UHGV virus genome: UHGV-0097969
DNA length: 45,847 nucleotides
Direction: 5' to 3' (one strand)
Source of the DNA: a virus
A program made the position numbers and the translations under genes. Shown here piece by piece: positions 3,857 through 41,908 of this stretch. Under the pieces are notes generated by a model. It made no database searches. It was given only the letters and a program-made list of their open reading frames with translations, and was not told the origin of the DNA. How positions within the stretch are numbered: the stretch's first letter is position 1; each line of letters starts with the position of its first letter.

Positions 3857-4473
3857 GCCTGAGCCTCCGTTGTCGGAGCGTATTCCCCCTGAGCTGTGTG
3901 ATGGTGGCCTTTAGATTTAATCCCATCAACATCTATATCACCACCAACAACCTTAACATCCCCAGAAATTGTAGCTGCAACACCTCCAGCAGAAGATCCT
4001 TTCATTCCACCTTTGAAGGTTAGTAATCCTTCAACTGTAGCATTTCCGGTAATGATGGTTTCTGGAGCATCAATAGTTACGGTTCCTGTAGCCTTAACGG
4101 TTACATCTCCGACAGCATCAACAAGGAGTAAATTAGATTCTCTGTCTACCTCAATACGAGTTCCGTTATTAAATCTAATGACGCGTTTATTAACCGTATT
4201 AGATGGTGGCTTCTGTGTTTCATCATAAAAACTACCAAGAATAAAACCTTGTTGCGGCCCTGCGGGATGAAAGATACACAAAACTTGCTCACCAATATCT
4301 GGCATCCAGTAATCAGCATTCTTATCCGTATTTTTCACAATAACTGATAACTTTGCCGAAGTGACGTTATCCTGATCATCGAAAGTAACTCTTGCTGTAA
4401 CATCACCATCATCAATATCAGAAACAACGCCAACTCTTATAGTCTGACGTAATAATGTTTCTAAATCATTCAT
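3853..4473 (-). CDS. baseplate assembly protein V (central spike)
   Basis: 206 aa; N-terminal OB-fold-like region and Gly-rich C-terminal beta-helix-like tail; position after gpD-like gene. Confidence 0.65.
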   Translation of the reverse strand: MNDLETLLRQTIRVGVVSDIDDGDVTARVTFDDQDNVTSAKLSVIVKNTDKNADYWMPDIGEQVLCIFHPAGPQQGFILGSFYDETQKPPSNTVNKRVIRFNNGTRIEVDRESNLLLVDAVGDVTVKATGTVTIDAPETIITGNATVEGLLTFKGGMKGSSAGGVAATISGDVKVVGGDIDVDGIKSKGHHHTAQGEYAPTTEAQA

Positions 4474-4475
4474 AA

Positions 4476-5477
4476 TTAATACCCATTAATTACTCTTCGG
4501 ACATCAATCGAGGTGGTATAACCACTAGCCCCAATTGAATGCACAGCTTTCGATATAAGATATTTTCCAGAAAATGAACCGAATCCGTCCAGATTTATAG
4601 TTACACCAGCTACCAATCTGGTGTCTCCAACCAATACTAAAGATCCTGTATTTTGATATCTATTTTTAAGCCGCAAAGCAGCCTTTGCCTTACGTTTTGC
4701 TTCATCTAAATTAGCTACCAGTTTTCTTATCTTAAGATTCGACCCTTCTTCTACGGATGGATCTACCCAAGTATACGAAAGCGACTTTCTTTTTTTAGGT
4801 ACGCGATATTTGCACGTGCAACTTTTATACAAATCTGTAGATTGTGTGCTAAAGCTATATCTGATTATCTCATCAATACCTAACGTAAGCGTAGCGATAG
4901 GATTTTTTTGCTCAAACATCTCTTGAGCAAATATTATTAATTGGCTATCAGTGACCTTTAACGACAACCCTTCATCCTGGCAAAGTCGATGGAGAAATTT
5001 TAAATCGCTTTCCTCCATTTGATCTTCACGCGCATAATATGGATTACTATCACCATCAATAAGAAACAACAGTTCAAGGTTAGCTAATTTAGCTATAGAA
5101 GTTGCTATATCTTTAAGAGTTGTTTTTTCCCATGCATTACTTTTTAAATCACGTCTAATGCCTGATGAAACAGGAACAGAAACAGCAGTCACCTCAACAA
5201 CAGAAGGTGGTCCAGAGCAAGTTATGCCATCTACCTGGAATTTCCCGCACTCAAGGACGATTTGATTTATAGGCTTAAAGCTCAAATCAATAAAATCACC
5301 CTTTTTAGGTGTCCAGTCTCCAGACCATTTCCCATCATCATTTTTTAATATAATAGAAATATCATCGACCTGACCATCTTCATTATCTGTATAAGACATT
5401 GACAAAACATCAGGTGACATATGAGCGGTAATATTTACATTCTGATATATAACATCAAAAAGCGTTTTACGTAACAC
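4476..5477 (-). CDS. tail protein, late control gene D-like (baseplate hub)
   Basis: 333 aa, position between X-like and V-like genes. Confidence 0.55.
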   Translation of the reverse strand: MLRKTLFDVIYQNVNITAHMSPDVLSMSYTDNEDGQVDDISIILKNDDGKWSGDWTPKKGDFIDLSFKPINQIVLECGKFQVDGITCSGPPSVVEVTAVSVPVSSGIRRDLKSNAWEKTTLKDIATSIAKLANLELLFLIDGDSNPYYAREDQMEESDLKFLHRLCQDEGLSLKVTDSQLIIFAQEMFEQKNPIATLTLGIDEIIRYSFSTQSTDLYKSCTCKYRVPKKRKSLSYTWVDPSVEEGSNLKIRKLVANLDEAKRKAKAALRLKNRYQNTGSLVLVGDTRLVAGVTINLDGFGSFSGKYLISKAVHSIGASGYTTSIDVRRVINGY

Positions 5478-5685: not shown

Positions 5686-8470
5686 AACTTAATCTCCGTT
5701 GTTGGAACATATGAGCACTCAATTTCTTCTCAAAATCAGAATATCCCGCATCTAATGCTCTTTTAGCTGCCGCCTCAGTTTCCTTTGGTGAACCAGCCGG
5801 AAGATTGATTACAGGTGAATAGGTTATTCCACCAGTCACAGCGTTAACGTTCTGGCGAGGTCCAGAAGTCCCGGCGGCAGATATTCCGTGAGGTGATAAA
5901 TTTGATTGCCCGAACTTGGTTGCTATTGCATTCTGTAAGCTGTTATTCCTGCTAACACCTGATGCCAGAGTAGTCATTATTGCACCACCTGACTTTGTTA
6001 GCTGTGAGAATGGACCTTTTTTCGCGTCAGAGAACGGTAAATACTCACGTACAGAAGAAAAAACGCCTTTCACTTCATTAATTAAAGCATTTGCTTTTGA
6101 TTTTATCCCAGTGATTAACGTCTCAATTATTTTTGCACCTGACTCACTCCAGTTTATTCCAGATAAATAAGCCGTTACAGATTGGAATGCTCTTATAAAG
6201 AGTCCAACTGGTGAAAAACGCATAAAAACAGATACCAGTGTATCTATGATTTTCTTTCCTGTTTCGCTCCAGTTAATGCCAGAAAGGTAATTTGTTGTAA
6301 GTTTAAATGCTTTAATTAAGAACGGAAGCGGAGACATCCATTTAAAAGCACTAATTAATGTACTGTAAATTCTTACTCCTGCCGAACTCCAGTTTATGTT
6401 GGAAAGATAATCCCATGCTTTACCAAACATAGATATAATCCATCCATTGAGGTCAAAGTTTAAGATAAAGTTTTTTATAGCCTCAAATGATTTAACTGTA
6501 TATTCCTTAACAGAAGGCCAAACTCTGACAGCATAATCTCTGATCTTATCCCAATTCTGATAGAGCAATATTCCTGCGGCAACCAGTGCAGATATAGCCA
6601 TCTGAATCCACCCGAAGGGTGTTAGCTTTGTCGCTACAGATAAAGCCAGCATAGCTACCCTACACGCTATAACCACACTTTTCATGGTTAGAAACGCACC
6701 TGCCGCCATCACAATCTGAGACACAAAATTGGGGTTGTTAGCTACAAATTCACTAATTTTTGTAATCAGCGGAACCAAAACACTAAGCGCGGCATTCAAA
6801 GCTGGTTGCAAGGCCTGACCAAAACTTAATGATGCATTGCTAGCCTGAATACGTAATTGTTTCAATCGCTCCGCATTGTCTTTCGTTATGTTGGCAAAAT
6901 CGCGGTCAATAACAGCACTTCCAGCCCCAAGAGATGTTGCTTTGATTCTCTGGTATTCCTTCCAGTTTTGAATCATCGGACGAACAAAGTTCTGAACCTG
7001 CATATCGCCAAATAGCTCACCAAGTAACTTCTGATCTCCGTTCTTAGTCATTTTCATGACAGAATGCATTGCAGCTTCGAATGGATTCTTCCCTTTTTTC
7101 TGCGCTGTTGTGACAATTTTATATAAATCTACACCGAAATTTTTCTTTGCTTTTTTTAGTGTTTCAGGGGAAAGTATTTTCGCCAAAAAGTTGTTCATAT
7201 TATTAGCAGCCTCATCCGAAGTTGCAGCACCTTTGCGAGCTATCTGCAAAGCTGCCCCCATCGTCGCGGCGGCTTCTTTACCTCCCATTTTTAATGCCTG
7301 GAACTGAGCACCAAGCACAGGAAGATTTTTGGCCATATCTTTAAATTCAAAGTTTCCCTCTTTCCCTGCCTGAACCAGAATCCCCATTGCAGACTTCATT
7401 TGAGATGGATCAATCTTCAATGAGTCACTTAATGTAAATGATGCTTTCGAGACATCGAGGATATCAGAGCCAGTAGCTGTAGCTGTTCGCCCAATAGTTA
7501 GTAGATTCGCCTGAGCCTCTTTATAATCCTGCCCAGCAGCGACGAGAAAACCCTGAGCGGCCTGAATATCAGATGCAAACTGGTTGGTGGCCGTTCCGGT
7601 AACAAGCATCGCCTGCCCCATCGCCTGAACTTCTTCCGGCTTCATATCTGCCGTAAGACCAATCATTTTGTTTTCACGATTGAAATTTGCTGCATTGTTA
7701 GCAGCAGCAAATGCACCAGCCGCTACAGCACCAGTTTGTAATCCTGACCTTACAAGTTGACTCTTTGCCTCACCAAGATGCTCTCGCTTCAATTCACGCT
7801 GCCTTTCCAACGCGCGGTTTAACTCCTCCTGAGCACGTTTTACTGCAAGAACATTTTTCCGTGCTTCAGCCAACGCATTTTTATAGCTGTTAATTTTATC
7901 AATACGTTGTTTTTCTAATGCCCGGTTAAGTTCCTCCTGCTGTTTTTTCACTTGCTGAACATTTGCTCTGGCTAAAGCCAAAGCCGTTCTGTAGCGGTTA
8001 ACCTGCTCAACGCTACGGGCCTGAGCCTCACGATTACGATCAATGCTGGCTTTAAGCTCTTTCTCTCTTGAGGCCAAAGCTCTGGCAGATGTATCAGCTC
8101 CCTGATAGGCAGACTTTAAAGCTGCCAGTTCTTCACGCTGAGAACGTAGTGATGCTCGTAAATTCGATGAATGTGTTTTTGCCTTCTCAAAGTCACGAAG
8201 CATCGCTCTGGTTGGATTGGCCGTGTTTTTTATTTGCTTCTGTAACTCTTCAACGCGAGCGGCAGCTTTATGATATTCGAGGGCAGTCTGTCCAACCTTT
8301 ACTTTTACAGATTGTAGCTTTTGAATTTCCCCATGTTCTTTCGTTAATCCAGCAAGCTCGGCATTTAATTTAGCAACAGCCTGATTAGCTGTAGTAAAAC
8401 TTTTGGGGAGAGAGGCGGCAACTTTACCGCCAATTTCAAAAGCCAGCTTAAAGTTCTTATTGCTGGCCAT
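5678..8470 (-). CDS. tail tape measure protein
   Basis: 930 aa, Ala/Gln/Lys-rich coiled-coil N-terminal half, hydrophobic segments, downstream of frameshifted chaperone. Confidence 0.85.
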   Translation of the reverse strand: MASNKNFKLAFEIGGKVAASLPKSFTTANQAVAKLNAELAGLTKEHGEIQKLQSVKVKVGQTALEYHKAAARVEELQKQIKNTANPTRAMLRDFEKAKTHSSNLRASLRSQREELAALKSAYQGADTSARALASREKELKASIDRNREAQARSVEQVNRYRTALALARANVQQVKKQQEELNRALEKQRIDKINSYKNALAEARKNVLAVKRAQEELNRALERQRELKREHLGEAKSQLVRSGLQTGAVAAGAFAAANNAANFNRENKMIGLTADMKPEEVQAMGQAMLVTGTATNQFASDIQAAQGFLVAAGQDYKEAQANLLTIGRTATATGSDILDVSKASFTLSDSLKIDPSQMKSAMGILVQAGKEGNFEFKDMAKNLPVLGAQFQALKMGGKEAAATMGAALQIARKGAATSDEAANNMNNFLAKILSPETLKKAKKNFGVDLYKIVTTAQKKGKNPFEAAMHSVMKMTKNGDQKLLGELFGDMQVQNFVRPMIQNWKEYQRIKATSLGAGSAVIDRDFANITKDNAERLKQLRIQASNASLSFGQALQPALNAALSVLVPLITKISEFVANNPNFVSQIVMAAGAFLTMKSVVIACRVAMLALSVATKLTPFGWIQMAISALVAAGILLYQNWDKIRDYAVRVWPSVKEYTVKSFEAIKNFILNFDLNGWIISMFGKAWDYLSNINWSSAGVRIYSTLISAFKWMSPLPFLIKAFKLTTNYLSGINWSETGKKIIDTLVSVFMRFSPVGLFIRAFQSVTAYLSGINWSESGAKIIETLITGIKSKANALINEVKGVFSSVREYLPFSDAKKGPFSQLTKSGGAIMTTLASGVSRNNSLQNAIATKFGQSNLSPHGISAAGTSGPRQNVNAVTGGITYSPVINLPAGSPKETEAAAKRALDAGYSDFEKKLSAHMFQQRRLSFG

Positions 8471-24481: not shown

Positions 24482-24555
24482 CCCATGTTCTCCTTTGTCT
24501 GGATGTAAAAAAGCCCCGGCAATTGCCGAGGCTCGTTGTTCGTTATCGTTACGGT

Positions 24556-25022: not shown

Positions 25023-25138
25023 CGGGTTATCTCCGGTTTAACCAGGGCGGGTATCGCTCGGTTTCGGGTATAACCTTAGGAAATTTTTTCCCACCTGTAA
25101 AGCACTTTTTATATAAATCTATAATTATATAATTCTAT
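25023..25138 (-). promoter_or_regulatory. conserved promoter/leader cassette, copy a
   Basis: About 108 bp near-identical to 31667-31768 and 41761-41876; TTTACA-N17-TAAGGT promoter-like, conserved leader with SD, AT-rich octamers upstream. Confidence 0.5.
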
Positions 25139-25722
25139 GACAGTTGCCAGAGAGCATCATGCAACTGGATACCTCCGTTGCACTGGTTGCCCCAGCCATG
25201 CCAGCCATCAGGTAAATCACCGCGAGCAAACAGCTCAATACGAGGAACATCACCTAACAGTCTTACCAGCTTGTCACGAACCACATCAGGCTTCCGTGAA
25301 TGTTCCAGACGAGGCGATGTAAACGACTGAATGATCCCCGCATCAAGGCGGGTCGGCAGTTTGCCTTTTACCGCAAACAAGCAATCTTCACTGTTCGCAC
25401 GAGTCATATGCCCCATCCCCATCACCAGCTTATCTGGTTGTCGGCTACCACATTTGTTCCATGTAAAGCCCTTCATGGTCATAAGCCTGAATCCCCATGC
25501 TTTCACCACCAGCAACGCTTCTTCTGGCTGAGTCGGAACCCACCACATGGCCAACAAACACGATTCAGGATTAGCAAGCTGCCAGACAGGAATACGAGCA
25601 ATATCCTCAGCTTTCATCGTTGGATACTTAAAACCAGCGCCACGACTCCCATCCTTACACTTGTCTTTGTATTCCCAGGGGGGATCTGCATAAATCAGAT
25701 TAAACAATGCAATTGCCTCCAT
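25135..25722 (-). CDS. DNA N6-adenine methyltransferase, MT-A70 family
   Basis: N-terminal motif ...LIYADPPWEY... (DPPW). Confidence 0.75.
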   Translation of the reverse strand: MEAIALFNLIYADPPWEYKDKCKDGSRGAGFKYPTMKAEDIARIPVWQLANPESCLLAMWWVPTQPEEALLVVKAWGFRLMTMKGFTWNKCGSRQPDKLVMGMGHMTRANSEDCLFAVKGKLPTRLDAGIIQSFTSPRLEHSRKPDVVRDKLVRLLGDVPRIELFARGDLPDGWHGWGNQCNGGIQLHDALWQLS

Positions 25723-26028
25723 GTTAGTTGTGCCTCCGGCGCTTATCTCCGGCAGTCATAACGCTGGCCAGCTCTACAGCAGACACAACGAAAAGGGCAC
25801 TAACCAGACTGATTAATGCCCTTGCCTGTTGTGTGCCGGATATCGCCCGACAACGCTGTTTTGGTAACACGGCTACAGTTCCGTGCCGCTCCAGCTTTTA
25901 CCCCTTTGCGGATAACAGGCCCTGCCTGTACTTAGCCCCACGTTCACCCGAATGTGCACCAGGCACGCATAAAGATGAGCACGAAGGAAGTAACTCCACC
26001 GCGCTTATCTTTATGTGTAAGAGTGAAT

Positions 26029-26104
26029 TGGTGGCCCCTACCGGATTTGAACCGATGACCGTGCGATTATGAGTCGCCTGCTCTAACCACTGAGCTAAGG
26101 GGCC
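26029..26104 (-). tRNA. tRNA with CAU anticodon (Ile2 or Met), CCA encoded
   Basis: Reverse complement GGCCCCTTAGCTCAGTGGTTAGAGCAGGCGACTCATAATCGCACGGTCATCGGTTCAAATCCGGTAGGGGCCACCA folds as a cloverleaf (7-bp acceptor, GCTC/GAGC D stem, TTCAAAT T loop); first half resembles ileX-type as recalled. Confidence 0.85.
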
Positions 26105-26273
26105 ATATTTGATTTGTTTGTCTGGTGTGGCGCCGCGTACGAAAATCCCAGCCAATAAATTCAGGATTTTTGGACGCGGCGGCATATCAGACAAACATGG
26201 TTGATGCGTGCGCTCATGAGAAAAGCGCATAGAATGTTGTAACTATATATTTATATAATTATAGAAATATATA

Positions 26274-26483
26274 TTACTTTTGGCAGTTGATTTCCCATGC
26301 CCTGTTATGAGCCAGAATATCTTTCTTTGTCTGGCGGTCCATAACATCGATGTCGTGATCAGTAAGGTAGATTGGCTTTACCCAATCACAGGCGGTATCA
26401 ACCACCACCGGGACGCTTCCACGACTCCCGCAGCTCGCGATCAACATCGTCATCAGCCATATGGTTAACACTCTGCTGTACAT
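26274..26483 (-). CDS. o-spanin (Rz1-like lipoprotein), overlapped frame
   Basis: Lipobox-like LIASC after a hydrophobic N-terminus; overlaps the 3' end of the i-spanin-like ORF in another frame. Confidence 0.45.
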   Translation of the reverse strand: MYSRVLTIWLMTMLIASCGSRGSVPVVVDTACDWVKPIYLTDHDIDVMDRQTKKDILAHNRAWEINCQK

Positions 26484-26676
26484 TCCCCACCTCTTTTGTC
26501 ACTTCTATACGCCGCTCCGCAGTGGCTTTTACGGCGGCTGCATTCTCATTAATGCGCTGCTTTTCAGCTTCATCTTCGGCCTTTTCTCGCCCCTTCATAC
26601 GACCAAAACCAAACGCACCGAATGCAACCAATATAACAGTGCCGATAAATGACAAAACGGCTTTCAAACCAGTCAT
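26398..26676 (-). CDS. i-spanin (Rz-like)
   Basis: N-terminal TM helix then charged coiled-coil region; directly downstream of endolysin. Confidence 0.5.
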   Translation of the reverse strand: MTGLKAVLSFIGTVILVAFGAFGFGRMKGREKAEDEAEKQRINENAAAVKATAERRIEVTKEVGNVQQSVNHMADDDVDRELRESWKRPGGG

Positions 26677-27215
26677 ACCACCACTCGATCTTTCATCCAG
26701 CCGTAGACAAACGACTCATTGGCCTCGCGCTTCTCCGCCAACTCCAGATAGCGTTCGCCCTGCGTACAGTTCAGCGACGTCAGCATCACCCGTTCTCCGT
26801 CTTTTCCCCGATTCCCAAGATAAGCACGCAGCGCATTAATGGTACGTGGACCGATTCGTCCGTCTGCATCCAAATCGGGATACAGCTTCCCGCGCAGATT
26901 GAACACATTCAGCCAGCGTTGAAGCATTTTTGACGCCACTGTTGGCCCCATGTTCACCCCCGTATCACACAGCTCTGCGGCAATATCAGAGGATAATGCG
27001 GCCACCTGATCAAAGCGTGGTCCGTACCAGTAATCAGCCTCAAGGATTTCCAGTGCCTGTTCGCGGGTTAAATCGCGCATATCGCCACGGTATCCATGAG
27101 CACGGGCAGTGTTCTGAGTAATGCCCCACTTTGTTGGGCCTCCCTTGTCGTCAGGGTGATCCACATAGCCGCCCTCTTTTCCAAGAACGCTGTTAAAAAT
27201 CTCATCTTTGGTCAT
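26673..27215 (-). CDS. endolysin, GH108 lysozyme with peptidoglycan-binding domain
   Basis: N-terminal ...GKEGGYVDHPDDKGGPTKWGIT... hallmark of GH108; follows holin genes. Confidence 0.8.
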   Translation of the reverse strand: MTKDEIFNSVLGKEGGYVDHPDDKGGPTKWGITQNTARAHGYRGDMRDLTREQALEILEADYWYGPRFDQVAALSSDIAAELCDTGVNMGPTVASKMLQRWLNVFNLRGKLYPDLDADGRIGPRTINALRAYLGNRGKDGERVMLTSLNCTQGERYLELAEKREANESFVYGWMKDRVVV

Positions 27216-27498
27216 GATTAAACCCTAATGCGTCAACTATCCGCGCCAGATTGCCCCTGAAATACAGAACAACGATGCAGATAATCAGATTTCCAATAAC
27301 CACCAGCCAGTGGGATTCTTGATAAAGACCGAACACATAACGGAAGGGAACATTGGCGTATACAATGACGTAGATATAAGCCAGAAAGGAAACAAATGGA
27401 CGATGCCTGGAGTCTTTCCGTCGATAAAGCATCAGCGCCATTACTATTACTGTGCAAAGCACCGCATTAATCAGTGCTGACGGGTCACTGCTTACCAT
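27202..27498 (-). CDS. holin/antiholin-like membrane protein
   Basis: Strongly hydrophobic; start uncertain (track 27534, internal Met at 27498); between holin and endolysin. Confidence 0.4.
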   Translation of the reverse strand: MVSSDPSALINAVLCTVIVMALMLYRRKDSRHRPFVSFLAYIYVIVYANVPFRYVFGLYQESHWLVVIGNLIICIVVLYFRGNLARIVDALGFNHDQR

Positions 27499-27880
27499 TT
27501 GAACCCCCTCCACGTAAGCGGGAAAGCATTCCAAAGATGCTACCGAGATCCTGGCTGTTTACGAACGTGAGGATTTTAATTGTCAATGCAGCCACAATAA
27601 CCGCACCAAGCGCATCAAGAGGTCGATCGTTGTAGCTGGTCCATTTGGCAAGAAATGAGCCAACTAACGGCGCTCCAATCACTCCAACAATGAACGATGT
27701 AAAGAAATAGCCAATCAGCTTGAGACGGCTAATATTCACCGCTGTAGCAACATAGAAAACAGCGCCAGCAAATGCCCCGAATACAACGCCGTAATCAATA
27801 CCAGTTGCAATACCAAAAACGCTGGCACCCATCAGGCCACCAGCAGCAACGGCCGTACCGGAAATTGGTTCTGCTGACAT
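27485..27880 (-). CDS. holin-like membrane protein
   Basis: 131 aa, Gly/Ala-rich TM segments; ATG at 27880 with GAGGA upstream; first gene of the lysis block. Confidence 0.5.
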   Translation of the reverse strand: MSAEPISGTAVAAGGLMGASVFGIATGIDYGVVFGAFAGAVFYVATAVNISRLKLIGYFFTSFIVGVIGAPLVGSFLAKWTSYNDRPLDALGAVIVAALTIKILTFVNSQDLGSIFGMLSRLRGGGSNGKQ

Positions 27881-27891
27881 TGAAATCCTCG

Positions 27892-27926
27892 TTAAAAAAA
27901 AAGCCCCGCCGAAAAAGGCAGGGCTT
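27892..27926 (-). terminator. strong intrinsic terminator immediately upstream of the holin RBS
   Basis: Minus strand AAGCCCUGCC-UUUUUC-GGCGGGGCUU followed by U9. Confidence 0.6.
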
Positions 27927-28258
27927 CATAAAGCAACAAATTACGCGGTAATCGCTTAACGCAGTTTTACTACGTTAAATGAAACACTACACCCAGTTAC
28001 CACCTAATACAAGGTTTTTCCATAAAAAACCTTCATATCGTGGTTAATCGATCAATAAAAAAACAATGTTCAATTTTTTACCAACCGAACATCCCGACCA
28101 GGACTTCCATAATATTCGCCGATATGCCACTGCTTAAGTTGAGTAATCTTCTCCAACTTAGCTCCCATAGAGTCCAGTTTCTGCCATGTTTTCGGTTGTA
28201 TGTGCTTCATTACCCGCTCTGAATATCTGAATACTGCTCGTAATCGCATGGATTCTCA

Positions 28259-28441
28259 CTACAGCTTATATAAGTGGTTTTTCCAGCGGTTTTGCGCCGC
28301 GCTGGGCTTTTTGCAAAAACCACAATCCATCATCCCGTAATATTTCATCAACCCCATCCGTCGGTTGCTGAGTCTCACCCACTGCCAGACGCCAGGAGCG
28401 TTTCTACGAACTAACAGAATCTTTGCTTTACGGTTTTTCAT
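28259..28441 (-). CDS. hypothetical small basic protein
   Basis: Internal Met of a longer track ORF; overlaps upstream gene end. Confidence 0.25.
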   Translation of the reverse strand: MKNRKAKILLVRRNAPGVWQWVRLSNRRMGLMKYYGMMDCGFCKKPSAAQNRWKNHLYKL

Positions 28442-30245: not shown

Positions 30246-30544
30246 GCCACAGCCCCTCTCAACGGCTTAACTTTGGCTAATAAGGTGTTAAACAACATGG
30301 AGTTAGGATTCATGCCAAATGGCAATTCCGGTTTAGCGGAGTAGTACAGGCAACCATTTATTTTCCTGGTTGTTATCTGTCCTTCGGCAACCATGCTTCT
30401 CAGTCTGCAACGCATAGAGTTCTGCGACACACCAATGTGCTCCGCGATTACGTCCACTTTTGAACATGGGTGATCGGTCAGGAAATTAATCACATCTTGG
30501 GGGTTAATAATTTTGCGTTTCATTGTCGAGGCGTCCTTATACAT
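30242..30544 (-). CDS. putative winged-helix DNA-binding protein
   Basis: 100 aa; AT-rich octamer motif directly upstream (30541-30562). Confidence 0.4.
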   Translation of the reverse strand: MYKDASTMKRKIINPQDVINFLTDHPCSKVDVIAEHIGVSQNSMRCRLRSMVAEGQITTRKINGCLYYSAKPELPFGMNPNSMLFNTLLAKVKPLRGAVA

Positions 30545-30592
30545 TTATATAATTCTATATACAGCGGGAGACATCCCGCCGTAGGCTTACTG

Positions 30593-31660: not shown

Positions 31661-31666
31661 CAGATT

Positions 31667-31768
31667 TCTCCGGTTTAACCAGGGCGGGTATCGCTCGGTT
31701 TCGGGTATAACCTTAGGAAATTTTTTCCCACCTGTAAAGCACTTTTTATATAAATCTATAATTATATA
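31667..31768 (-). promoter_or_regulatory. conserved promoter/leader cassette, copy b (P_R'-like position after the Q-like gene)
   Basis: Near-identical to copies a and c; lies about 60 bp downstream of the Q-like stop. Confidence 0.5.
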
Positions 31769-31830
31769 TTTATAGATTTTCCGATATTCCCGATGCCTAC
31801 AAATCACCAAAACAGCTCAAAATGACACTT

Positions 31831-32208
31831 TCACTCTCTTCGTTTTTTCAAATAGTCGACAACATACGCCCTGGCTTTTGCCAGCTTCCGGCGATACTGT
31901 CTGAGACTAAGAGAAAGGGCGTGGGCTTTATCAATATGCGGTGCATTTATGTCGAGGCCCCGAATCTCCCACGCCCCGTATTCAATTCTGACAACCAGCG
32001 CCGCAGTCTCATCAACTACCGTGAGGGCCGTCACCGCTCCCTCGATACTGGTTTCCAGTGAGTCATTTGGTGCGCCGCCCCCTCCAGTAAACTGGCAGCG
32101 CGTAACCATCATCATTTCTAACATCGACGCGAAACCGCTACGGGCGTTGCAGCCATTGCGCACCCACAGCGCCCATAGCTCAAACAAGCTATCCAGATCG
32201 CGTCTCAC
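31831..32208 (-). CDS. late-gene antiterminator, Q-like
   Basis: 125 aa; N-terminal ...LFELWALWVRNG... resembles the P22 gp23/Q-like WGAW region; sits upstream of a late-promoter-like cassette. Confidence 0.45.
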   Translation of the reverse strand: MRRDLDSLFELWALWVRNGCNARSGFASMLEMMMVTRCQFTGGGGAPNDSLETSIEGAVTALTVVDETAALVVRIEYGAWEIRGLDINAPHIDKAHALSLSLRQYRRKLAKARAYVVDYLKKRRE

Positions 32209-34199: not shown

Positions 34200-34317
34200 A
34201 CCACGATATGTGGTATTAAAACCACATATCGTGAGTTTTTCAATGGGCGAAACAAAAAATAACCTTCTATTTGTGGTCCACCTCTCGTCTTACCATGTGA
34301 AAACCACTAAATGTGGT
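34200..34317. promoter_or_regulatory. operator cluster ACCAC-N5-GTGGT in the divergent immunity promoter region
   Basis: Perfect sites ACCACGATATGTGGT (34200-34214) and ACCACTAAATGTGGT (34303-34317), partial sites at 34221-34233 and 34272-34280. Confidence 0.55.
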
Positions 34318-34354
34318 AATGTATAAATAACCCACCATTCACGATTGATGAGAC

Positions 34355-35500: not shown

Positions 35501-35606
35501 TTATATGATTATAGATTTATATAATTATATAAAACACTTTTCATCAGCCAAAAAGTTGGTTATGCTTACCTCGTTCTATAAATATAGATTTATAGAATTA
35601 TATAAC
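35501..35606. repeat. AT-rich octamer arrays upstream of parA (candidate centromere/operator)
   Basis: ttatatga ttatagat ttatataa ttatataa at 35501-35532 and tatagatttatagaattatataa at 35580-35606; similar array at 36281-36314. Confidence 0.45.
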
Positions 35607-35613
35607 CAAACAC

Positions 35614-36795: not shown

Positions 36796-36819
36796 TAAAA
36801 AAGGCCCCCGAAGGGGCCT
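36796..36819 (-). terminator. intrinsic terminator between convergent units
   Basis: AGGCCCC-cgaa-GGGGCCT stem with T-run on the minus strand. Confidence 0.5.
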
Positions 36820-36824
36820 AATCG

Positions 36825-36947
36825 CTACTTGCTGCTAATGTTTATCGTCACATTCAGAGCGTTATCAGTAATCTTCCAACCCTCCCCATGTGGCGTAAAC
36901 AAAGCTCCAGTAACAACGATAAAAATACACATGTAGTATTTTTTCAT
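36825..36947 (-). CDS. small hydrophobic peptide (40 aa), putative
   Basis: MKKYYMCIFIVVTGALFTPHG...; AAGGG SD; terminator directly after the stop. Confidence 0.3.
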   Translation of the reverse strand: MKKYYMCIFIVVTGALFTPHGEGWKITDNALNVTINISSK

Positions 36948-37261
36948 TGTGTGGCCCTTACAGGCCGTTTCACGGCATCCCCACCGACGAAAATGACGCG
37001 AGAGCAAGCACGCTGTTTGTGCCTGCGTGGTACGGCAAGTGGATAATCCTTTCCTGAAAGTCAGTGCCCGGGTGCGAATCGGCGGAAAGGCCCCAAGCCA
37101 TATTACACGTCATACCCTTCATAATGAAGGAATAAAAAACGCTTTTATTACATAAGATTACACGTAAATAAGTTAAAAACCTTCATTTTGCATGAGCTAA
37201 TGAGCTAAATTTTTTTATATGAATAGTGGACTATTCACCTCAGTTGGGTAAGAATGTAGTT

Positions 37262-38094: not shown

Positions 38095-38203
38095 TTGACA
38101 TGAATGCGCCATTGGTGGACACTTTCCGAGCCGTAGCAAAATCTACGGTCGGGATTGGAACCCCGTAGACACAATGGCGCATACCGCGTTAGCGGTTTTT
38201 TTA
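38095..38203 (+). promoter_or_regulatory. promoter plus structured leader with intrinsic terminator (attenuator or small RNA) ahead of the antirepressor operon
   Basis: TTGACA at 38095-38100; hairpin CCGTAG-caaaat-CTACGG; long-range GCGCCATTG...CAATGGCGC; terminator ACCGC-gtta-GCGGT plus T7 at 38183-38202. Confidence 0.35.
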
Positions 38204-38368
38204 TGCGTAAAGCACTGCTACACCCAAATTATGGTGGGGCGTGCGGGGGAGTCGTAAGACTCGCCGGTTCGTCATTGTGTCCGGTAGTTCCAACCCAGCA
38301 CGTCTCACCACCCAATGATTGGAACCTGACGGTGGTGAGTATCCTTAACCTTTAAGGGAATCATCACA

Positions 38369-38560
38369 ATGACAAACCTACCCCATGACTATTACGTCAA
38401 CCTCGTAAAGATCCTTCTCAAGAAAGCCTCATACGCCGATAAATTCCGCTTGGCTGAAATAATCGAGCGCGAAGCTATGCGCATCGCCAGCAACGATAAC
38501 GCTGTTTCTGACGCAAAAATCTCCCTCGTAACCAAAGTAGTTATGGGAGGTGCAAAATGA
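38369..38560 (+). CDS. small protein upstream of and coupled to the antirepressor
   Basis: 63 aa, AAGGGA SD; stop overlaps next start (ATGA). Confidence 0.4.
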   Translation: MTNLPHDYYVNLVKILLKKASYADKFRLAEIIEREAMRIASNDNAVSDAKISLVTKVVMGGAK

Positions 38561-39738
38561 AAACGCTTCCGACCGTTAACACCCTACAGCCTATCCTGCA
38601 TAACCAAATCCCCGTTATCACTACTGAACTACTGGCAAAGCTATACGGCACAGACGTTGATAACATCAAAAAAAATTACTCACGTAACGCAAACCGCTTT
38701 ATTGAAGGAAAGCATTTTTTCAAAGTGGCTGGCGATGAGTTAAAAACTTTGCGAGTGACTTTAAGTCACTCACAAAATTTGCGACTGGTTTTAAACGAGT
38801 CACAAAATGAGGTGCAAATTTCCCCCAAAACTCGCTCTCTCATCCTCTGGACAGAACGCGGGGCTGCACGTCACGCCAAAATGCTTGAAACTAACCAAGC
38901 GTGGGATGTGTTCGAACGGCTGGAAGACTGCTACTTCAACCAGAACGCGCAAACGGCCGCGACCGTTACCGTCTCGCCAAACAATGCTCGTGAGGTTGTC
39001 GATACGCTCAACGCCAAACCGATGTTTTACATTAAAGTGTGCAACAACGAGCCACTCACAACCTCAGCCGATGTTGCCCAGGCATTCAGCACCACAAACA
39101 ATTCCATCGTTATGGCCATCGATGCGCTACGCATTCCTCGCACGGCTGCGGCGCGTCACTTCTTTAAAGAGCAACGACCGCTGGAAGGAAGCGACCGCGA
39201 AATAACAATCTATCGCATGACAAAAGACGGATTTACCTTACTCATGGAGAGCATCGACGGTCCAAGCGTGAAAGATATCAAGCTGGCCTACATTGAAGCC
39301 TTTAACGCTATCAGCAGCGTGTTAAAAACACAGTACGAGCGTGATCTGGCTAAACGACTGTACCAGGAAAAAACGATTATCCGCGCGGCAACAGAGCATA
39401 ATCGGCTATTAACGGAACCGAACTACAGGAAGGAACTAATCAAGGAGTTTGACAAGGCAACAGGAAAAACCAAAGCGGCGCTAAATCTGCCAGCAATGAC
39501 TCAGGAAAATGTGATATCAGCCTTACTTCTTGATCTGCTCAGAAACGCCAGAGCACTGATCAGCTTTGACGAAAACCTGAATCCTCAGCTCAAGCTACTA
39601 CCACCGACAGGCAAAGTAGTCGACCAGGCAGATCACAACAGCATACTCAGCGTACTGGATGCAAACCTACCAGCCAGGACACTACAGGAACTGATAAAGA
39701 TATCGGCGGATAAACTGGCCGCAGGTGCAAAACCATAA
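38557..39738 (+). CDS. Rha-family phage regulatory protein / antirepressor (ORF6N-like N-terminus plus Rha domain)
   Basis: ...ILWTERGAARHAKMLETNQAWDVFERLEDCYF... and ...ITIYRMTKDGFTLLMESIDGPSVKDIKLAYIEAFNAI... resemble ORF6N and Rha signatures. Confidence 0.55.
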   Translation: MKTLPTVNTLQPILHNQIPVITTELLAKLYGTDVDNIKKNYSRNANRFIEGKHFFKVAGDELKTLRVTLSHSQNLRLVLNESQNEVQISPKTRSLILWTERGAARHAKMLETNQAWDVFERLEDCYFNQNAQTAATVTVSPNNAREVVDTLNAKPMFYIKVCNNEPLTTSADVAQAFSTTNNSIVMAIDALRIPRTAAARHFFKEQRPLEGSDREITIYRMTKDGFTLLMESIDGPSVKDIKLAYIEAFNAISSVLKTQYERDLAKRLYQEKTIIRAATEHNRLLTEPNYRKELIKEFDKATGKTKAALNLPAMTQENVISALLLDLLRNARALISFDENLNPQLKLLPPTGKVVDQADHNSILSVLDANLPARTLQELIKISADKLAAGAKP

Positions 39739-41760: not shown

Positions 41761-41876
41761 CGGGTTATCTCCGGTTTAACCAGAGCGGGTATCGCTCGGT
41801 TTCGGGTATAACCTTAGGAAATTTTTTCCCACCTGTAAAGCACTTTTTATATAAATCTATAATTATATAATTCTAT
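41761..41876 (-). promoter_or_regulatory. conserved promoter/leader cassette, copy c
   Basis: Near-identical to copies a and b (one G/A difference in the leader). Confidence 0.5.
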
Positions 41877-41880
41877 AAGC

Positions 41881-41908
41881 ACAAAAAAGCCCCTTTGCAA
41901 CAGGGGCT
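41881..41908 (-). terminator. intrinsic terminator after the toxin-antitoxin pair
   Basis: AGCCCCT-ttgcaac-AGGGGCT with T-run on the minus strand. Confidence 0.55.

Follow-up and report, generated by a model that had tools for sequence, protein, structure and literature searches.

A strong intrinsic terminator at the holin ribosome-binding site of an Escherichia coli phage-plasmid as a probable gate to lysis gene expression

How do the lysis genes of a plasmid prophage come to be transcribed when a strong terminator lies directly ahead of the first of them? The question is raised by the UHGV virus genome UHGV-0097969, a stretch of 45,847 nucleotides (called the window below) from what we take to be a phage-plasmid of Escherichia coli. 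An earlier note on this DNA had placed an intrinsic terminator immediately before the holin gene and reasoned that lysis would require read-through, in keeping with a Q-type antitermination regulon. Here we report that the terminator is canonical and strong, that its position ahead of the holin is kept in relatives whose stems differ, and that antitermination of the lambda Q type is probably what opens it.

All genes around the site lie on the minus strand and run from right to left, and the site itself is intergenic and co-directional, between a 59-aa gene (stop at 28070) and the holin gene (start at 27880). Read 5' to 3' on the minus strand, the sequence is ...TTGCTTTAT-GAAGCCCTGCC-TTTTTC-GGCGGGGCTTT-TTTTTT-AACGAGGATTTCA-ATG, in which the Rho-independent terminator occupies 27927-27894. 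Its 5' arm (27927-27917), 6-nt loop (27916-27911) and 3' arm (27910-27900) form a stem of 11 pairs, 7 of them G-C, consisting of an 8-bp G+C core with one G.U pair and an extension of A-U and G.U pairs that uses the first three residues of the U9 tract (27902-27894) directly 3' of the stem. The hairpin alone has a folding free energy of -20.0 kcal/mol, a lower value than that of any of the five other terminators tested in the window, and its 71-nt context reaches -24.7 kcal/mol (z = -4.2), a value equalled by none of 200 shuffles. A consensus scan ranked it first of 23 terminator-like sites in 20-36 kb; with stringent criteria (a stem of at least 8 pairs, at least 6 G-C pairs and at least 7 T in 8), three sites were found in the real window against none in 40 dinucleotide shuffles. 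Across 11 near-identical plasmid and phage copies the stem is invariant, and the lengths of loop and U-tract differ by one nt only. A bidirectional terminator or a role on the plus strand was ruled out, as that strand has an A-run before the hairpin and no real genes there. The hairpin is, to judge from these features, a canonical, strong and strand-specific Rho-independent terminator, and one that would be expected to terminate efficiently in vivo.

The holin start follows almost at once. Its Shine-Dalgarno sequence, GAGGA at 27890-27886, was read directly from the minus strand and begins 3 nt after the end of the U-tract; the AUG at 27880-27878, also the start used in the RefSeq annotation of a 99% identical plasmid, comes 13 nt after the end of that tract. 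Because the ribosome-binding site begins so soon after the U-tract, the lysis genes appear to have no promoter of their own. A scan of the minus strand for sigma-70 matches of at least 9/12 was empty both between terminator and holin and in 27928-28430, and a promoter in either interval was rejected, candidates picked out by eye reaching only 3/6 plus 3/6. The picture drawn in the earlier note, of a strong terminator before the lysis cassette with no room for a separate promoter, is borne out in its substance; its U9 tract was right and its 10-bp stem essentially so, the stem being one pair longer with a shorter G+C core, and its spacing of about 12 nt to the holin ribosome-binding site has to give way to the 3 nt found here. 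Its deduction that lysis gene expression would need terminator read-through appears well supported by this anatomy and by comparison with relatives.

Relatives of the holin were taken from 80 IMG/VR loci encoding them, in which the 130 nt upstream of the start codon comprise 53 distinct sequences. A hairpin with a perfect stem followed by a T-run is present in 44 of the 53, hairpins being detected in each sequence separately; perfect-stem terminators were found in only 6 of 277 same-strand control segments from the same loci (2%) and in 2 of 530 shuffles. The stems represent about 12 distinct arm sequences, and they keep a fixed spacing from the AUG, of 18-19 nt in the group to which the window belongs (19 in the window) and of 45-58 nt in a group with 82% holin identity. 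Since differing stems stand at a fixed spacing, it is the position of the terminator rather than its sequence that is conserved. A covariation analysis of these terminators by MAFFT and RNAalifold recovered only 3 pairs, stems of unequal length not being registered with one another.

Two loci whose holins are about 82% identical, L018 and L030, carry recognised Q genes (by Pfam, PF06530 plus DUF1133 in L018 and PF03589 in L030) that end about 150 nt before the holin. The gap between Q and holin contains a good promoter and, 60-90 nt downstream of it, one or two terminators; the promoter of L018 is TTGCAG-17-TTAAAT, and the corresponding stretch of L030 looks like lambda PR'. Judged by its sequence, this gap is a compact PR'-tR'-holin unit. 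In four loci with extra genes inserted (L026, L011, L068 and L035), the terminator still stands immediately before the holin. A plasmid of Salmonella Concord (L086), belonging to the same phage-plasmid family as the window, has another lysis cassette and with it another terminator, AAGCCTCGC...GCGGGGCTT-T7, located 45 nt before the first lysis gene; it is homologous to the window through the 59-aa gene and 110 nt of spacer, up to a point shortly before the hairpin. There are also E. coli and IMG/VR copies in which the sequence upstream of 28067 is different and spacer, terminator and holin are kept. These homology breakpoints in recombinants indicate that the terminator belongs to the lysis module and travels with it.

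A leader, CCCCTC-N-GAGAGGACTCACGGCAATAAGAGGGGG, follows the terminator in the relatives with 82% holin identity (L011-L081; about 45 nt to the AUG; for example L018 4953-4997) and is absent from the window and its 10 close relatives. In the common variant, CCCCUC pairs with the Shine-Dalgarno sequence GAGGGG in the minimum-free-energy fold (-15 kcal/mol), and a second variant tested folds otherwise; the pairing suggests that the leader may act as an extra translational lock on the holin in those relatives. In L011 part of the tR'-leader (terminator plus CCCCTC...GAGAGGACTCA) is duplicated around an insert between Q and holin, at 4470-4560 and 4925-4995, an arrangement suggestive of a moron having inserted into the leader.

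The wider arrangement of the window gives the terminator its context. From the repressor-proximal early region (~34.3 kb) down to 27927 the minus strand has no other strong terminator, so that this is the first strong one met downstream of the early promoter (~34.2 kb) and of a promoter cassette, cassette b, described below. Four more follow on the same strand: 25823-25793 (-17.9 kcal/mol), after a tRNA and before an MT-A70 methylase gene; 24534-24511 (-18.2 kcal/mol), about 25 nt before a 151-aa gene; 23660-23639 (-16.0 kcal/mol), about 20 nt before a 105-aa gene, with the ParB-like and packaging genes downstream; and 5583-5563 (-11.7 kcal/mol), inside the tail-gene array. The terminators at 25823, 24534 and 23660 each lie in a short gap just ahead of a gene. 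As the first on its strand, with further ones downstream, terminator 27927 is therefore the first barrier between early or accessory genes and late genes. The lysis and morphogenesis genes are co-directional downstream of it and are cut off from upstream transcription by the terminators, and the need for late expression to cross such a series is a signature of processive antitermination. Terminator-resistant transcription would be the simplest route to expression of the lysis and late genes.

We consider it probable, though well short of assured, that the lysis genes are gated by terminator 27927 and that the gate is opened by processive antitermination of the lambda Q type. Polymerase coming from the repressor-controlled early operon (~34.2 kb), from the cassette at 31.7 kb, or from both would stop at 27927, leaving the upstream genes expressed and the holin, endolysin and spanins silent; the lysis genes would be transcribed only by polymerase reading through the terminator. 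Upon induction, a processive antitermination factor would give that read-through and would also take polymerase past 25823, 24534, 23660 and 5583 into the packaging and structural genes. The most likely factor would be a 125-aa protein encoded at 31831-32208 on the minus strand. The efficiency of termination in vivo, the dependence of read-through on a factor, the identity of that factor and its loading site are what we infer from this arrangement.

The gene for the 125-aa protein occupies the position of Q, after Ref-like and DUF1064/RusA-like genes. The protein is phrog_5285, which has no function attached, and its 31 close homologues are all hypothetical proteins. It has no Pfam match at E<=0.01 and no sequence match in PDB, and NCBIfam returned one weak full-length match, to PA0613_fam (E 2.5e-4, 21 bits against a cutoff of 100); a single member of 24 close homologues matches PF06530 (E 0.07). 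An exhaustive profile search enlarged the family to 130 clusters (50% identity) of proteins of 110-150 aa. Among 70 aligned members (A3), weak matches to Pfam Phage_antitermQ (PF06530) were found in 9 (best E 1e-4) and to PA0613_fam in 36 (best E 2.8e-8), these being the commonest matches in their respective libraries, and some family members weakly match models of extracytoplasmic-function (ECF) sigma factors. PA0613 adjoins the holin gene PA0614 in the R/F-pyocin cluster of P. aeruginosa; in the literature we found nothing on PA0613 as an antiterminator, nor a paper assigning it a function.

The AlphaFold2 model built from 24 sequences has a mean confidence score (pLDDT) of 77, residues 23-46 being poorly defined, and its top Foldseek matches in PDB are the Q21 entries 6P1C, 6P1A, 6P18, 6P1B and 6JNY (E 0.3-0.9, probability up to 0.94, template-modelling score about 0.5), followed by sigma region 4 domains. 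The predicted fold thus appears to resemble Q21 and sigma region 4. Sequence-level proof of a Q identity was sought with Pfam, NCBIfam, PDB sequences and hhalign and had to be abandoned, these giving nothing or weak matches. An A1 profile scan of species-representative genomes yielded a single Pantoea locus. The analysis also covered five more distant loci in which the 125-aa gene has a homologue (L083, L084, L088, L089 and L090, the last from Pantoea). In four of them the stretch from the homologue to the packaging genes contains several intrinsic terminators; no convincing terminator was seen in the 7 kb available for L083. L084 has a promoter-like site at 8104-8131, with a terminator about 50 nt beyond it and genes after that. 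We regard the 125-aa protein as a reasonable candidate antiterminator and at most a putative Q.

One place where such a factor might load is the promoter cassette that follows its gene, TTTACA-17-TAAGGT beginning 93 nt after the stop codon. This cassette b (31661-31785) precedes a DUF3560 gene; near-identical copies are cassette a (25023-25140), located past the lysis genes and before the pre-packaging genes, and a third in the plasmid-maintenance region (41761-41885), after the terminator of the RelE/ParE operon and between this toxin-antitoxin operon and a 126-aa gene. All three are on the minus strand, with -35 elements at 41839, 31738 and 25101, and b and a share a 108-nt repeat (31667-31774 and 25030-25137) that is 98% identical. 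Each comprises a TATA-rich octamer array with an 8-bp period, the promoter TTTACA-17-TAAGGT and a conserved 5' untranslated region (UTR) with about 45 nt to the start codon, and the three genes downstream are unrelated. In other plasmids and in Salmonella the -10 element is TATGGT, the Salmonella copy of cassette a having the better -10. A palindrome after the third cassette (41371-41345) was discarded as a terminator; it has 12-bp arms without a U-tract, stands just upstream of a small helix-turn-helix (HTH) gene and is operator-like.

The octamer, TTATATAA, is palindromic, and further arrays lie directly upstream of parA (35501-35613, comprising 35501-35532 and 35566-35613), after the open reading frames (ORFs) in spanin position (26227-26282) and before an HTH gene (30529-30560). 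These arrays could serve as centromere or operator sites scattered through the element, or could be bound by the 125-aa protein. By eye only, an AGCGAT motif was noticed in the initially transcribed region of cassette b, resembling the lambda counterpart AACGAT. Cassette b is 3.8 kb from the first strong terminator, and cassette a about 570 nt from the one at 24534. Because there are three copies, one of them in the maintenance region, and because arrays also precede parA, the cassette is not demonstrably a loading promoter of the PR' type; it may be a Q-loading promoter, or equally part of a partition- or repressor-controlled regulon. Transcripts reaching 27927 could equally come from cassette b, from the early promoter at ~34.2 kb, or from a weak promoter in the conserved 140 nt before the hairpin.

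Several of these observations weigh against terminator gating by Q-type antitermination. No member of the known Q families PF03589, PF06530 and PF06323 was recognised in the element by Pfam (E<=0.01), and RNA-family, Pfam and NCBIfam searches found no canonical Q, N or put element in it. Comparison of the 125-aa family with Q82-like/DUF1133 proteins by hhalign gave a probability of 14%, confined to an N-terminal L-x-x-W-x-x-W motif. The cassette promoter, far from the terminator, present in triplicate and sharing its arrays with parA, suggests a different control, and intrinsic terminators are leaky, so that some lysis expression may occur free of any factor. Of the Q-type regulon fed from cassette b that had been put forward earlier, the antitermination logic survives, a recognisable Q does not, and cassette b becomes a putative source among others. 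A more ambitious version, in which the 125-aa protein represents a fourth Q-type family loading at the triplicate cassette with its flanking partition-type octamer arrays, would wire partition and the lytic switch together, with a 140-nt RNA ending at the terminator that is perhaps a small regulatory RNA (sRNA) while the element is a plasmid; we offer it tentatively and consider it possible but doubtful.

The DNA between the hairpin and the 59-aa gene invites another explanation. This 59-aa gene (28070-28249, minus; phrog_9594, E 7.7e-45), the last before the terminator, has a homologue in Salmonella L086. The non-coding block that follows it (27928-28069, minus) contains an A+T-rich hairpin, a G/U-rich stretch and two small hairpins. 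A weak constitutive promoter at about 28013-27985 (TTGTAT-17-TAGTGT) could produce an RNA of about 85-90 nt that ends at the hairpin, with an antiterminator loading there as at PR'; the short RNA, like lambda 6S RNA or StxS, might itself be a regulatory sRNA, and StxS offers a precedent [PMC7547250]. The proximal 100 nt of the block show no difference among 11 copies, in contrast to the variable 50 nt beyond them, and 28066-27958 is 85% conserved in Salmonella phage-plasmids with a different terminator and lysis cassette, the core, including TTGTTT-17-TAGTGT, being kept at about 96%. The spacing from promoter to terminator would agree with the 60-90 nt of the Q-bearing relatives and the ~50 nt of L084, and block and terminator together are strongly structured (z -4.7). 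Identity among plasmids that are themselves 97-99% identical is a weak sign of selection, however, and the two hexamers match the consensus at only 3/6 each, in a region where the promoter scan at 9/12 or better was empty. We judge a local promoter-terminator unit of this kind unlikely.

The same block was compared with known RNA families, none of which passed its Rfam gathering threshold at the terminator site. The closest approach was GcvB (RF00022), matching 27895-28051 on the minus strand over the full length of the model (E 1.7e-6 in a 601-nt search) and including the G/U-rich stretch GGUGUAGUGUUUCAUUU; its 36.7 bits stay below the gathering score of 42. Such an architecture would speak for a short regulatory RNA from a local promoter, but the homologue in Salmonella L086 scores only 22.9 bits. 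An identity with GcvB was rejected for these reasons, the match probably reflecting a generic layout of hairpin, G/U stretch, hairpin and terminator. The block could be a small RNA derived from a 3' UTR or a leader, or generic architecture. Nor did it prove to be a degenerate fourth copy of the promoter cassette: 299 of 1000 dinucleotide shuffles and 45 of 294 genomic segments attain the alignment score of 27, a chance level of similarity that also counts against a local loading site.

The hairpin could instead be a plain operon-end terminator, forming and stabilising the 3' end of the upstream unit, with lysis brought about by leak-through as transcription from upstream increases on induction and no dedicated antiterminator. 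The missing Q, N or put element fits this explanation, as does the single co-directional array of upstream genes, whose end is 143 nt short of the hairpin; and because a small dose of holin is effective, leakage together with a rise in plasmid copy number might suffice. A U9 tract behind a stem of -20 kcal/mol would, however, be expected to terminate efficiently, and with four more strong terminators in series the yield of the structural genes would be multiplicatively small. The terminator segregates in recombinants with the lysis cassette and not with the upstream gene, and recognised Q systems serve the same position in relatives. An operon-end terminator without an antiterminator therefore seems to us distinctly unlikely. 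That the 125-aa protein, being sigma-region-4-like, activates late promoters or acts in a sigma-like way at the three cassettes, with read-through left to another mechanism, is very improbable: the weak ECF-sigma matches and the three identical promoters with a sub-optimal, regulated-looking -10 (TAAGGT) favour it, but activation alone fails to explain passage of a U9 terminator that ends 3 nt before the holin Shine-Dalgarno sequence, and the protein is too small for a full sigma factor, region 2 not being recognisable.

Gating of the lysis genes by a Q-type antiterminated terminator can be set beside known systems. In lambdoid phages the PR' promoter fires constitutively; in lysogens its transcripts stop at a terminator a short way downstream, and Q overcomes this termination [PMC7547250]. 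The window shares with the lambda late switch an intrinsic terminator that separates the lysis genes from transcription upstream, a one-strand order of lysis and then morphogenesis genes interrupted by further terminators, and a candidate regulator gene after recombination- or resolvase-type genes at the end of the early region. It differs in that no member of the three known Q families is present, that the promoter cassette occurs in three copies and that the putative loading promoter is 3.8 kb off with eight or nine genes between, where lambda has about 200 nt and lambda-type systems about 50-250 nt. The terminator here touches the holin Shine-Dalgarno sequence, whereas in lambda about 400 nt separate tR' from S.

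The units of L018 and L030 are alike in their homologous holin, second holin and spanins and in a terminator that stands at a fixed short distance and travels with the cassette; they have a recognised Q about 150 nt before the holin, often tandem terminators, and the CCCCTC...GAGGGG leader, none of which is found in the window. In Stx phages, the constitutive PR'-tR' transcript ends at a terminator before the toxin and lysis genes and is extended on induction, and StxS shows that the terminated RNA can itself be functional [PMC7547250]; here, unlike there, the close promoter is putative and an sRNA role of the 140-nt block speculative. The 125-aa protein has no sequence-level match to Q21 (6P18, 6P19, 6JNX, 6JNY) or to AlpA of P. 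aeruginosa (7XYB), and what its model shares with them is largely the sigma-region-4-like HTH, which is common. In the linear phage-plasmid N15, also a plasmid prophage, the late operon depends on Q in the manner of lambda, and partition sites are scattered close to phage promoters. Its morphology and genes are unrelated and its Q is a recognised Q, so that the parallel with the octamer arrays is a lead only.

The lysis cassette itself begins with the holin gene (27485-27880), a member of Pfam PF16931 Phage_holin_8 (E 1.7e-37) labelled "phage holin family protein" in RefSeq plasmids. A second holin-family ORF (27202-27534; PF05449 Phage_holin_3_7, E 1.2e-17), given a later start and 297 nt in RefSeq, is followed by an endolysin (26673-27215) with Glyco_hydro_108 (GH108) and PG_binding_3 domains, and then by two overlapping small ORFs (26398-26676 and 26274-26483, spanning 26274-26676) that we presume from the ORF list and their position to be the spanins. 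Neither has a family match in the Pfam search; the second contains a lipobox-like LIASC. All are on the minus strand. So is a tRNA with anticodon CAT (26029-26104), which comes after the spanin-position ORFs and before the second terminator; ARAGORN assigns it to Met, RefSeq labels its counterpart in a 99% identical plasmid Ile, and it may be a lysidine-type tRNA-Ile2.

The terminator site occurs in 70 of 5426 complete E. coli genomes (~1.3%), and 71 of its 72 occurrences in E. coli map to plasmids 47-50 kb long; 61 non-mobilizable plasmids of this kind are recorded in PLSDB, among them the 48,488-bp plasmid of ATCC 25922 (NZ_CP009073.1), which is 95.8% identical to the window across the site. 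The RefSeq annotation of a 99% identical plasmid names RepA, a RelE/ParE pair, ParA, an XRE/S24-type repressor, Ref-like and DUF1064 proteins and tail genes. From the plasmids that carry the site and this gene content, the window therefore comes from a phage-plasmid of about 48 kb. Its nearest phage records are three unannotated 49-kb Yersinia myoviruses, and a literature search found nothing on this phage-plasmid family.

Elsewhere in the element, isrK and C4 antisense RNA (38130-38202 and 38227-38315, plus strand) both score above their Rfam gathering thresholds and stand directly upstream of a 393-aa anti-repressor gene (Ant/Rha-like; 38557-39738, plus); by these matches the set is an immI anti-repressor module of the P1/P7/Gifsy type. 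A full-length match to ryfA RNA (134.6 bits; 36797-37095, minus) ends at a terminator (36819-36802) and adjoins the par genes. Between the XRE/S24 repressor gene and the divergent early operon are an inverted repeat with 13-bp arms (CACGATATGTGGT...ACCACATATCGTG; 34202-34233) and a smaller ACCAC...GTGGT palindrome (about 34300-34320), which are likely operators.

In a plasmid prophage any leak into the holin gene kills the host, and a strong terminator at the holin ribosome-binding site would explain how the upstream genes can be transcribed safely. The terminator gate would be an established lambda-type late switch in a new host element and not a new principle. Across about 50 different phages, lysis cassettes bring their own 5' terminator when they recombine into new genomes, and a terminator followed by a holin may serve annotation as a mark for the start of a late, antitermination-dependent region. 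The 125-aa protein can be put to the test as a candidate member of a new antiterminator family, and the phage-plasmid encoding it is carried by about 1.3% of complete E. coli genomes, that of the reference strain ATCC 25922 among them; if the protein does represent a new Q-like family, terminator 27927 would be the decisive gate.
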